Positions 40,835 to 42,952 are shown, numbered from the stretch's first letter. The stretch is DNA of 64,000 bases from Candidatus Pelagibacterales bacterium (GCA_004213215.1 SHAO01000001.1:687-64686); one strand, 5' to 3'. Program-made: numbers and translations. Notes: a model not told the origin generated them from the sequence alone.

Positions 40835-41764
40835 ATGAAAATTTTAGGAATAGGGAATGCAATTGTAGATGTTATCTGTAAAGTTGATGACAATTTTATT
40901 ACTCAAAATGATTTGACCAAAAGTACAATGAAATTGATTTTTGACGAAAGCGAATTTAAAAAATTATTATCTAATCTTAAAATTGAAAAAACTATTTCAG
41001 GGGGGTCGGTAGCTAACTCAATCGTGGGTATATCTCAACTAGGTAATAAAGTAGGGTTTATTGGTAAGGTTTGTGATGATGATCTTGGAAGCAAATATGA
41101 AGTAGGACTTAAAAAAGAAAATGTTGAATATTTTTACTCAAAAAAAAAAGAAAAATTACCAACAGGTACTTGTTTAATTTTAATAACACCAGATTCGGAA
41201 AGAACCATGTGTACATTTCTTGGTACAGCAGGAAAAATTAGTGAAGATGACGTTGATATTAATGCAATTAAAAATAGTGAAATTATATTTTTAGAAGGTT
41301 ATTTGTGGGACGAAGGTGATCCAAAAAAAGCATTTGATAAAGCAATTAATAATGCAAATAAAGTTGCAATGTCATTATCTGATCAGTTTTGTGTTGATAG
41401 GCATAAACCTCATTTCTTAGATTTAGTAAAAAATAAAATAGATATTACGTTTGGTAATGAACAAGAAATTACATCATTAATTAACGCCAAAAATTTTGAC
41501 GAGGTCATAAACTTTTCTAAACAACTTGGAAAATTAATAGTTCTTACAAGAGGAGAAAAAGGGGCAATTGCTATAAAAAAAGATGAAGTTGTTGAGTGCG
41601 GTATCCAGAAAAATCTTAAAATTGTTGACTTGACCGGCGCTGGAGATCTATTTGCTGCAGGATTTTTACACGGACATGTAAATAATTTCTCAATTAAAGA
41701 GAGTTTGCAAAAAGGCACGGAAATGTCTTCTAAAGTTATTCAACAAATAGGCGCAAGACTTTAG
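40835..41764 (+). CDS. PfkB-family carbohydrate/nucleoside kinase (adenosine-kinase-like)
   Basis: GGSVANS N-terminal motif and DLTGAGDLFAAGFL C-terminal motif. Confidence 0.8.
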   Translation: MKILGIGNAIVDVICKVDDNFITQNDLTKSTMKLIFDESEFKKLLSNLKIEKTISGGSVANSIVGISQLGNKVGFIGKVCDDDLGSKYEVGLKKENVEYFYSKKKEKLPTGTCLILITPDSERTMCTFLGTAGKISEDDVDINAIKNSEIIFLEGYLWDEGDPKKAFDKAINNANKVAMSLSDQFCVDRHKPHFLDLVKNKIDITFGNEQEITSLINAKNFDEVINFSKQLGKLIVLTRGEKGAIAIKKDEVVECGIQKNLKIVDLTGAGDLFAAGFLHGHVNNFSIKESLQKGTEMSSKVIQQIGARL

Positions 41765-41765
41765 A

Positions 41766-41879
41766 TTATTTTTTTTTCCTTATAAAACTTCCTTTTCCTT
41801 TTTTTGGTTTAAAAATACGTTTTTTATATTTTGGAGAGAATAAATCTCTGGCAATAAAATTTCGTGATTTTTTTTTCAA
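41766..41879 (-). CDS. Candidate 37-codon micro-ORF with ArfA-like KKGKGSFxRK motif (unannotated)
   Basis: Manual translation gives (TTG)KKKSRNFIARDLFSPKYKKRIFKPKKGKGSFIRKKK-TAA. The TTG overlaps the TGA of the upstream regulator gene (TTGA). An AAGGG lies 8 nt upstream. It fills the only gap over 100 nt between convergent genes. The coding call is tentative. Confidence 0.4.
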   Translation of the reverse strand: MKKKSRNFIARDLFSPKYKKRIFKPKKGKGSFIRKKK

Positions 41880-42448
41880 ATATAGTACCCTTCATTATTA
41901 TTTTTAATAAAATTATCATCTCCAAATTTTTCTAAAATTTTTTTTCTTAATCTATGAATGTGAGTTTCTACAGTGTGTGTTTGGGTTTCTGGGGAATAAT
42001 TCCATACTTTTCTTAAAACCAAATTTCTACTTATTGGTTTACTACTTTTATTAAATAAAATAAGAAAATTAATTTCTTTTTCTGATAATTTAAGTTGTAC
42101 TCCGTTTTTTTTAATTTTACGTTCATTTTTATCAATTACATAACTAGAAAGATTAATTAAAGAATTACTTTTAAACTCACTTTTCGCTATTGATAATATA
42201 ATTTTTTTTTCAAAATCTAGTATTTTAAAAGGCATTTTTATTTTCTCTAAAATATTACCTTGGTTTATAATCTTTAGGCTTAGCGAATTTTCAAAAGAAA
42301 GTGCTATATATTTTTCTGAATTAGAAACTGTATTAAATAAATCACTGTTTTCATAAAATTTTATTTTATATTTAGAAAATAACTTTATTTCATTTATAAT
42401 TTCATAAAAGATTTTATTTCCAATTATTGATATGGTAAATTCGTTCAT
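41876..42448 (-). CDS. OmpR/PhoB-type winged-helix regulator with short, degenerate receiver-like N-terminus
   Basis: C-terminal wHTH (LSEKEINFLILF...RNLVLRKVWNY...THTVETHIHRLRKKI). The N-terminal ~95 aa lack the acidic pair and phospho-acceptor Asp of receivers. I set the start at M20 (MNEFTISIIG...) of the track ORF. Confidence 0.7.
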   Translation of the reverse strand: MNEFTISIIGNKIFYEIINEIKLFSKYKIKFYENSDLFNTVSNSEKYIALSFENSLSLKIINQGNILEKIKMPFKILDFEKKIILSIAKSEFKSNSLINLSSYVIDKNERKIKKNGVQLKLSEKEINFLILFNKSSKPISRNLVLRKVWNYSPETQTHTVETHIHRLRKKILEKFGDDNFIKNNNEGYYI

Positions 42449-42460
42449 TATAAGTGTTAT

Positions 42461-42952
42461 ATGAATATTATAGTAAAAAAACGCTTTCTGGAATACAAAG
42501 GTCATAAATTCAAGTGTAGCATTGGAAAATCAGGATATAGTTCGTCTAAAAAAGAAGGTGATTTAACAACACCAAGAGGTATTTTCAAACTTGGTGCAAT
42601 TTACTTTAGAAAAGACAGAATAAAATCAATAAAAACCAAAATAAAAAAAAAAATTATTAAAAAAAATATGGGGTGGTGCGATGATTCATTAAGTAAAGAA
42701 TATAACCAAGAAATAAAATTTCCTTATAAATATAGTGCAGAAAAACTTTTTAGAAAAGACAAATTTTATGATATTTTTATAAATGTAAAGTACAATCAAA
42801 ATCCAGCAAAAAAAAATAGAGGAAGCGCAATTTTTTTACACCTTACAAATGAAAAATATAAACCTACAAAAGGCTGTATAGCTATATTAAAAAAAAATTT
42901 TTTAAAAATTCTTCCACTAATTGACAAAAAAACAAAAATTTCAATTACTTAA
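42461..42952 (+). CDS. YkuD-fold L,D-transpeptidase-like protein (small, no obvious signal peptide)
   Basis: GSAIFLHL...PTKGCIAI resembles the His/Cys catalytic motif of the L,D-transpeptidase (YkuD) fold. Confidence 0.55.
   Translation: MNIIVKKRFLEYKGHKFKCSIGKSGYSSSKKEGDLTTPRGIFKLGAIYFRKDRIKSIKTKIKKKIIKKNMGWCDDSLSKEYNQEIKFPYKYSAEKLFRKDKFYDIFINVKYNQNPAKKNRGSAIFLHLTNEKYKPTKGCIAILKKNFLKILPLIDKKTKISIT

Follow-up and report, generated by a model that had tools for sequence, protein, structure and literature searches.

What does a gap of 111 nt between two convergent genes contain in a genome of the Pelagibacterales that otherwise leaves hardly any space between its genes? The window, i.e., the whole stretch of 64,000 nucleotides that was analysed here, is 97% coding at a GC content of 29% and contains 60 ORFs of at least 75 aa according to a crude gene call. 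By the same gene call, nine of the ten convergent junctions in the window have gaps of at most 12 nt, and the tenth, between a gene for a pfkB-family sugar kinase and a gene for a transcriptional regulator, is the gap of 111 nt. The original prediction, which was made from the sequence alone, described an open frame of 37 codons on the minus strand of this gap and suggested that it encodes a miniature ArfA-type ribosome rescue factor that was missed by length cut-offs. Its description of the ORF, and of the gap as the only large convergent one in the window, is accurate as judged from the ORF list, the sequence and the gap count. The proposed identity is supported by a match to the Pfam ArfA family (PF03889), by conservation of the frame and by the lack of an RNA alternative, as detailed below. 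A separate observation on the spacing of genes is the presence of one divergent gap of 625 nt in the otherwise densely coding window.

The locus and its surroundings

The features of the locus are listed in Table 1. The 37-aa product of the frame reads MKKKSRNFIARDLFSPKYKKRIFKPKKGKGSFIRKKK. The overlap of its start codon with the stop codon of the upstream gene and the AAGGG 8 nt further upstream, to both of which the original prediction drew attention, can be read directly in the sequence. In most orthologues, an A/G-GG element is found 5' of the arfA start, an element that is also constrained by the conserved C-terminal Gly codon of the regulator. At the other end, the TAA of the frame lies 1 nt from the TAG of pfkB (41762-41764), and in relatives the 3' end of pfkB overlaps arfA.

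Table 1. Features of the arfA-like locus; positions are counted from the first nucleotide of the window
Feature	Position	Strand	Description and evidence
arfA-like gene	41766..41879	(-)	37 codons, TTG start, TAA stop; ORF list, PF03889, dN/dS, hhalign
TTGA overlap of the regulator TGA (41876-41878) with the arfA TTG (41877-41879)	41876..41879	(-)	Stop-start translational coupling; sequence
AAGGG, Shine-Dalgarno-like	41888..41892	(-)	8 nt 5' of the TTG, within the final codons of the regulator gene; sequence
KKGKGS codons (residues 26-31), ArfA signature motif	41787..41804	(-)	No variation among 26 SAR11-type sequences or within the canonical set of ArfAs
Codons of the basic C-terminal tail KPKKGKGSFIRKKK (residues 24-37)	41769..41810	(-)	Equivalent to E. 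coli ArfA residues 31-44; alignment to ArfA chains of ribosome structures
OmpR/PhoB-type winged-helix regulator, upstream gene	41876..42505	(-)	209 aa; Pfam Trans_reg_C at residues 137-207
pfkB-family sugar kinase, convergent gene	40835..41764	(+)	Pfam PfkB, E 1.7e-45

In the first 130 residues of the regulator, no receiver domain was detectable, and all its matches to NCBIfam response-regulator models were sub-threshold. Because of the undetectable receiver domain, it is considered an atypical or orphan member of the OmpR family. Its gene stays beside pfkB even where arfA is absent. A search of the whole window with Rfam (gathering threshold) and ARAGORN yielded no match and no tRNA.

At the composition of the window, a run of 37 stop-free codons has a chance of ~4% per frame (rough estimate). 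As the length of the ORF alone is thus not significant in DNA of 29% GC, the case rests on conservation and on comparative tests.

Conservation and coding selection

Among 60 relatives that were searched in six frames, 28 of the 36 members of the same family contain the stop-free frame, as opposed to 0 of the 24 members of a sister family (f2). In a profile search of a larger sample, consisting of 300 genomes of the order that are each at least 80% complete, the gene was found in 208 out of 273 genomes of the same family, including 170 out of 226 in the largest genus of that family. Among 27 genomes of the sister family, which serves as a compositional control, a single, marginal match (E 5.8e-4) was obtained.

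The sequence variation within the family was analysed in an ungapped core of 30 codons from 20 orthologues. In this core, the Nei-Gojobori ω was 0.105 in the proposed frame and 1.1-2.2 in the two shifted frames on the same strand. The values in the reverse-strand frames ranged from 0.24 to 1.3, the lone low value being that of the frame that shares its third positions with the proposed frame. All 30 third positions were variable, as compared with 13 first and 11 second positions. The conservation of the frame across the Pelagibacterales, which the original prediction had named as a check, thus turned out in its favor, with a frame that is kept free of stop codons within the family and a dN/dS ratio of ~0.1. 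The arrangement of the start is conserved as well: an NTGA overlap with the upstream stop codon is present in all 20 orthologues, with TTG as the start codon in 17 and ATG in three of them. The upstream ORF has at least 209 open codons in each of these 20 cases, and the overlap persists in one genus with a different upstream gene. With this evidence, it is practically certain that 41766..41879 is a real protein-coding gene.

The chromosomal order regulator-arfA-pfkB is found in at least 11 genera, without phage genes nearby. Where arfA is missing from complete genomes of the large sister genus, synteny is kept and only 3-6 nt separate the regulator gene and pfkB. It follows that the gap of 111 nt is the gene itself, which is either present or absent. 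Since about a quarter of the genomes of the family, complete ones included, do not contain arfA, the gene is dispensable. In one complete, arfA-lacking genome of the large sister genus (G063), a gene for a protein of 201 aa is located between pfkB and the regulator gene (L115:2429-3034), and the junction is thus a variable spot.

Some relatives have longer C-termini (...KKKVSLI, 'VSLI'-type), in which the frame continues antisense through the last pfkB codons; this overlap of arfA and pfkB was read by eye from the locus sequences. These C-terminal extensions are probably functionally insignificant.

Homology to ArfA

The closest known system is ArfA of E. coli (YhdL; PF03889), which is present in the ribosome structures 5MDV, 5MGP, 5U4I, 5H5U and 7OJ0. 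The HMM comparison with PF03889, which was among the checks named originally, gave a score for the peptide above the gathering cut-off (27.1 vs. 25.5 bits, a margin of 1.6 bits; E 2.9e-6). It was the sole PF03889 candidate at E<=10 in the six-frame translation of the 0.98-Mb assembly. Of 14 control genomes, only that of E. coli yielded a score above the cut-off. All 26 database relatives that were scanned matched PF03889, and no match was found between the 37-aa peptide and the NCBIfam models. When all PDB sequences were searched with phmmer and with the family profile, only the ArfA chains of ribosome structures were retrieved.

For a comparison between profiles, a canonical set of 30 ArfA genes was collected from a 400-genome sample of the phylum, of which 21 were aligned. 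In hhalign, the SAR11 profile matched that of these 21 gamma- and betaproteobacterial ArfAs with a probability of 96.1% and an E-value of 2.9e-9 over 32 columns. SAR11 residues 6-37 correspond without a gap to E. coli residues 13-44, and the homology thus reaches past the low-complexity tail. In E. coli numbering, N14, I16, L20, P23 (in this genome) and R28 are kept, as are F25, as Tyr, and V29, as Ile. In the tail, the signature K34, G35, K36, G37, S38 and R41 is fully kept. The earlier count of nine identities over 13 positions between PKKGKGSFIRKKK and a segment of E. coli ArfA was confirmed in the alignment to the PDB chains. The DLF of the peptide, which had been equated with the PLF of E. 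coli, is out of register: E. coli P23-L24-F25 aligns with P16-K17-Y18.

In E. coli, residues 31-44 of ArfA occupy the empty mRNA channel, and the protein retains its activity upon truncation at N47 but not upon truncation after M40 (PMC5378476). The SAR11 peptide ends at the equivalent of K44, with RKKK following the equivalent of M40. A tail of this length, between the two E. coli truncation points, is plausibly sufficient for filling the channel. Overall, we consider it very probable that the gene is a homologue of the ArfA family.

Departures from canonical ArfA

The SAR11-type proteins are 36-46 residues long, as compared with 54-87 residues for the sampled canonical genes, and their similarity to canonical ArfA is concentrated in the ribosome-binding tail. 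Their N-terminus is 7 residues shorter, and G9, which is invariant in the canonical set, is missing. The equally invariant A18 aligns with R/K/Q, and the near-invariant I11 and L24 are likewise lost. In E. coli, a hydrophobic patch formed by L19, L24 and F25 contacts Trp319 in RF2's switch loop, and this explains the specificity for RF2 (PMC5378476). In the SAR11 proteins, an invariant Asp replaces L19 and an invariant Lys replaces L24, leaving only F25 of this patch, as Tyr. Thus, the SAR11 proteins have not retained the residues by which the N-terminal minidomain of E. coli ArfA activates RF2.

The RF2 of the genome retains V198, F217 and W319, the positions that contact ArfA in E. coli RF2. 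These positions are presumably conserved broadly among RF2 proteins and, therefore, their retention only shows that nothing excludes a partnership between ArfA and RF2. As judged from its sequence, the SAR11 protein is a distinct minimal variant in which two canonical features fail, i.e., the RF2-activating residues at the N-terminus and, as described next, the regulation by non-stop mRNA.

RNA structure and regulation

Canonical arfA genes contain a hairpin, an RNase III site or a terminator within the ORF, which gives rise to non-stop mRNA, and tmRNA keeps ArfA levels low (PMC6299226). When a stretch of 170 nt beginning with the KGKGS codons was folded, this feature was readily recovered in the 30 canonical loci that served as a positive control, with a mean z-score of -4.41 and values below -2 in 29 of them, whereas the same stretch had a mean z-score of +0.73 in 20 SAR11 loci, none of which was below -2. 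The original prediction had mentioned an RNA structure or a terminator as a possibly better explanation of the spacer. Neither was found: the fold of the locus is no more stable than that of shuffled sequence (z -0.14), 20 orthologues have a mean z-score of +0.8 with no consensus pair in RNAalifold, and a scan of the locus revealed no terminator-like site and no Rfam match at E<=1.

The stop codon of arfA is genuine and directly follows the basic tail, and there is no internal hairpin. The non-stop regulatory feature of canonical arfA is, therefore, absent. From the position of the stop codon, the lack of a hairpin and the conserved coupling, we infer that arfA expression is probably low, constitutive and coupled to that of the regulator gene.

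Rescue systems and release factors in the genome

The original prediction had also asked about the presence of smpB, ssrA and arfB elsewhere in the genome. The assembly, which is 78% complete, encodes SmpB (191.8 bits), a two-piece alpha_tmRNA (188.6 bits), RF1, and RF2 (TIGR00020; 477 bits vs. a cut-off of 370). Its only matches to PF00472 are RF1 and RF2. A search for RF-1-domain proteins of the size of ArfB gave none in this genome and none in 60 relatives, of which 20 have a completeness of at least 90%. With a completeness of only 78% for the present assembly, it is mainly the relatives with higher values that support the absence of ArfB. Since no ArfB was found, the peptide would, where present, be the sole recognisable backup to trans-translation.

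The open frame of RF2 comprises 347 codons. The longest start-to-stop ORF (L024:1408-2391, minus strand, contig C4) begins at position 33 of TIGR00020. The ~30 N-terminal residues may be encoded in another frame, as in the usual programmed frameshift of prfB, or the true start may be located upstream.

Relatives in phages and other Alphaproteobacteria

A pattern scan of IMG/VR revealed that at least 161 viral contigs encode relatives of the peptide, with 53-73% identity among the 80 loci that were kept (L035-L114; e.g., L063:3989-4093, L075:3992-4132 and L035:3998-4141). They share the core NP(I/V)AK(D/E)(L/V)RTPKYK.R(I/V)VKPKKGKGS(F/Y)KRK and are closer to the SAR11 peptide than any non-SAR11 cellular homologue that was seen. 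All six phage copies in a scan of eight proteins passed PF03889. A tblastn search of the GenBank phage collection with the peptide gave no match, probably because of the low-complexity filter. In T4-like phages, arfA is located between two clamp-loader genes, beside a T4-type DNA polymerase gene; in other contexts that were checked, it lies beside terminase and integrase genes or beside a portal gene. As the local GC content of the phage loci examined spans from ~26% to 57%, the carriers are not only pelagiphages. Most phage copies are short, with an ATG start, a true stop codon and no hairpin.

Some contigs encode a fusion of the ArfA-like module to a longer protein of 117-142 aa (L053:368-, L069-L071, L098:3986- and L101:3986-). 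The C-terminal part of these fusions reads ...STVNKAGNYTKP.MRK.LFE.IKAG..GGKPGQWSARKAQ.LA..YK.AGGGY and has no Pfam match outside the ArfA segment. Two phage proteins have been annotated as ArfA in the literature, i.e., gp30 of pelagiphage HTVC027P, which was reported to be highly expressed both early and late (PMC12753301), and g10 of Citromicrobium phage RXM (PMC8953757). The distribution points to exchange of the gene between SAR11 and its phages, ~35 aligned residues being too few to tell the direction.

Outside the SAR11 family, ORFs matching PF03889 were found in only seven genomes of a 400-genome sample of the class. The non-SAR11 alphaproteobacterial copies (L026, L028, L030 and L034, in genomes of 3.8-5.4 Mb) encode 51-95 aa that combine the same RNP(V)A..L core with a long extension at the C-terminus. 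In one of them, L030, the motif is followed by a very strong hairpin (z -8), in line with canonical non-stop regulation.

Proposed function and alternative explanations

The most likely course of events at this locus is that arfA is translated by TTGA stop-start coupling behind the regulator gene. When a ribosome has come to a halt at the 3' end of a truncated mRNA, its vacant mRNA channel would then probably take up the tail KPKKGKGSFIRKKK, whilst the N-terminal and middle part, RNFIARDLFSPKYKKRI, would keep a release factor, in all likelihood RF2, in an active state, resulting in hydrolysis of the peptidyl-tRNA. Rather than being switched on when trans-translation fails, the SAR11 protein is probably made constitutively at a low level, and it may serve as the sole backup to tmRNA-SmpB in a streamlined genome in which no ArfB was found. 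On the basis of the sequence comparisons, rescue of ribosomes through a release factor appears likely, and we likewise hold the explanation as a whole, i.e., a minimal rescue factor of the ArfA family that is translated by coupling and acts as an unregulated backup, to be reasonably probable.

One alternative is that the frame is open by chance in an A-rich spacer, the real content of which is a terminator or a structured RNA. Lys-rich frames do arise easily in A-rich DNA, at the ~4% per frame estimated above, but a dN/dS of 0.105 with variation concentrated at third positions and a frame that is intact in 208 of 273 relatives are not expected of such a spacer. Neither are a fold z-score of -0.14 at the locus without a terminator-like site or Rfam match, and a mean z-score of +0.8 without consensus structure in the 20 orthologues. 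A chance frame or RNA element is, therefore, ruled out by the tests of selection, conservation and folding. A further proposal of the original prediction concerned the regulation of the gene: the terminal AGG-AAA-AAA-AAA-TAA would be slippery and make termination inefficient, thus providing a non-stop-like self-regulation analogous to that of E. coli arfA. In this genome, nine A residues do directly precede the stop codon, and 9-11 are found in some relatives. However, the run is not conserved, since its maximal length close to the stop codon is anywhere between 3 and 11 in the 20 orthologues and does not exceed 7 in 12 of them, and Lys AAA codons in a genome of 29% GC suffice to account for it. 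Furthermore, the C-terminal ends differ (KRKKR*, KRKKN* and KRKKKVSLI*), the longer ones reading antisense through the 3' end of pfkB. This device is, therefore, very improbable.

Alternatives that accept the homology deserve more weight. The protein could be a ribosome-binding factor derived from ArfA with a changed release-factor interface, which would either act like ArfT, with RF1 or RF2, or fill the empty channel for protection or silencing without RF2. Such a change is suggested by the preservation of the tail next to the loss of the RF2-activating residues (A18 to R/K/Q, L19 to D, L24 to K, with G9 and the first 7 residues missing), and the combination of 36-46 aa, a real stop and no hairpin is the published architecture of arfT (PMC6299226). 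Yet, homology is also seen outside the tail, over E. coli residues 13-30, including N14, I16, L20, P23 (in this genome), F25 (as Tyr), R28 and V29 (as Ile), the RF2 of the genome has its ArfA-contact positions intact, and no positive sign of another activity was noted, which makes this possibility rather unlikely. Another explanation is a phage origin of the gene, with a main role in phage-host conflict; the host copy might then be a recently acquired passenger with patchy retention and not a core rescue factor. The abundance of relatives on at least 161 viral contigs, closer than the non-SAR11 cellular homologues seen, their position in true phage modules in the contexts checked, the published phage annotations naming ArfA (PMC12753301; PMC8953757) and the variable presence of the gene at a fixed site within one genus all fit with this explanation. 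It is, however, difficult to reconcile with the conserved chromosomal synteny in at least 11 genera without neighboring phage genes and with the strong purifying selection on the host gene; besides, a phage origin is compatible with a rescue function, and the ~35 aligned residues are too few to establish the direction of transfer. We regard it as improbable. An extension of the proposed rescue function that brings the two sides together is possible, but still doubtful: SAR11 would share with many T4-like, temperate and podovirus-like phages of the sea a distinct, stripped-down clade of ArfA, encoded on stop-terminated messages without a tmRNA-controlled switch, whose altered interface, with Asp and Lys instead of Leu19 and Leu24, might activate release factors differently, possibly both RF1 and RF2, and phages would use it to keep ribosomes free during the degradation of host and phage mRNA.

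Prior annotation and implications

The gene was described originally as unannotated. This holds for the gene list that accompanied that description but not for the databases, where close relatives are already named ArfA by NCBI, e.g., MBC8307866.1, 'ribosome alternative rescue factor ArfA [Pelagibacterales bacterium]', and, with similar names, by JGI. In a protein database search with the 41-aa stop-to-stop frame of the window, 158 proteins of 36-55 aa matched (E<=0.01), and a precomputed PF03889 assignment was present in all but one of the 120 matches listed. A survey of ~15,000 genomes with DNA-level nhmmer profiles reported arfA in none of 2,376 Alphaproteobacteria (PMC11633108). Both this survey and reviews consider ArfA to be confined to the Gammaproteobacteria, to some Betaproteobacteria and to a few Bacillus. 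No paper treating arfA of SAR11 hosts was found in the searchable literature. Hence, whilst the family label is already in the databases, the distribution in SAR11, the minimal architecture, the lost autoregulation and the phage copies are essentially undescribed.

The presence of an ArfA homologue in about three quarters of the sampled genomes of the family that holds SAR11, whose members are among the most abundant bacteria of the sea, contrasts with the survey mentioned above (0/2,376 Alphaproteobacteria; PMC11633108). As the gene is missed by gene finders and by DNA-level surveys, inventories of rescue pathways in marine bacteria are incomplete. With 36-46 residues, the SAR11 proteins are near the experimentally defined minimum of E. 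coli ArfA. This near-minimal length, together with the lack of the N-terminal invariants and of autoregulation, makes them a natural minimal system for dissecting the parts of ArfA, which bears on the question of which parts are needed for recognition of the empty channel and which for activation of the release factor. That so many relatives are carried by phages suggests that phages manipulate ribosome rescue as a resource.

Comparison with known rescue systems

The SAR11 protein shares with E. coli ArfA an identical KKGKGS motif and R41, a gapless alignment over residues 13/14-44 and the coexistence with tmRNA-SmpB and RF2. It differs from it at the positions of G9, A18, L19 and L24, where the SAR11 peptide has no residue, R/K/Q, D and K, respectively. 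Canonical ArfAs, unlike those of SAR11, are 54-87 aa in length in the genes sampled, have a C-terminal extension, and are synthesized from non-stop mRNA owing to a hairpin or terminator. The SAR11 gene, unlike E. coli arfA, has its translation coupled to that of an upstream gene and resides in an alphaproteobacterial host.

ArfB (YaeJ) and BrfA are, like ArfA, backups of trans-translation with a basic C-terminal tail that senses the empty mRNA channel. ArfB has an RF-1 domain of its own, of ~140 aa, that contains GGQ, whereas no such domain is present in the SAR11 37-mer. BrfA is a Bacillus protein that, to our knowledge, has no sequence relation to ArfA.

The other alphaproteobacterial and phage ORFs have the core RN(P/F)(I/V)A..L...(K/R)(Y/F)K.R(I/V)VKP(K/R)KGKGS(F/Y).R(K/R) in common with SAR11, and all those that were scanned pass PF03889. 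The alphaproteobacterial copies differ from it by their size of 51-95 aa, their long C-terminal extensions and, in one case, a strong hairpin, and the phage copies by their ATG starts, their location in phage modules and their occasional fusion to a longer protein.

ArfT of Francisella is a protein of 40 aa with a KGKGS-like basic C-terminal stretch, encoded by a stop-terminated gene without terminator or RNase III site; it uses RF1 or RF2, and its host has a small genome lacking ArfB (PMC6299226). As far as can be judged from this published description, it resembles the SAR11 gene in being very short, with a real stop, no hairpin and no ArfB found in the genome. In contrast to the SAR11 peptide, ArfT contains KKGGSTNKK instead of KGKGS, escapes ArfA homology searches and is confined to Francisella (PMC6299226), whereas the SAR11 peptide is a clear homologue of PF03889.
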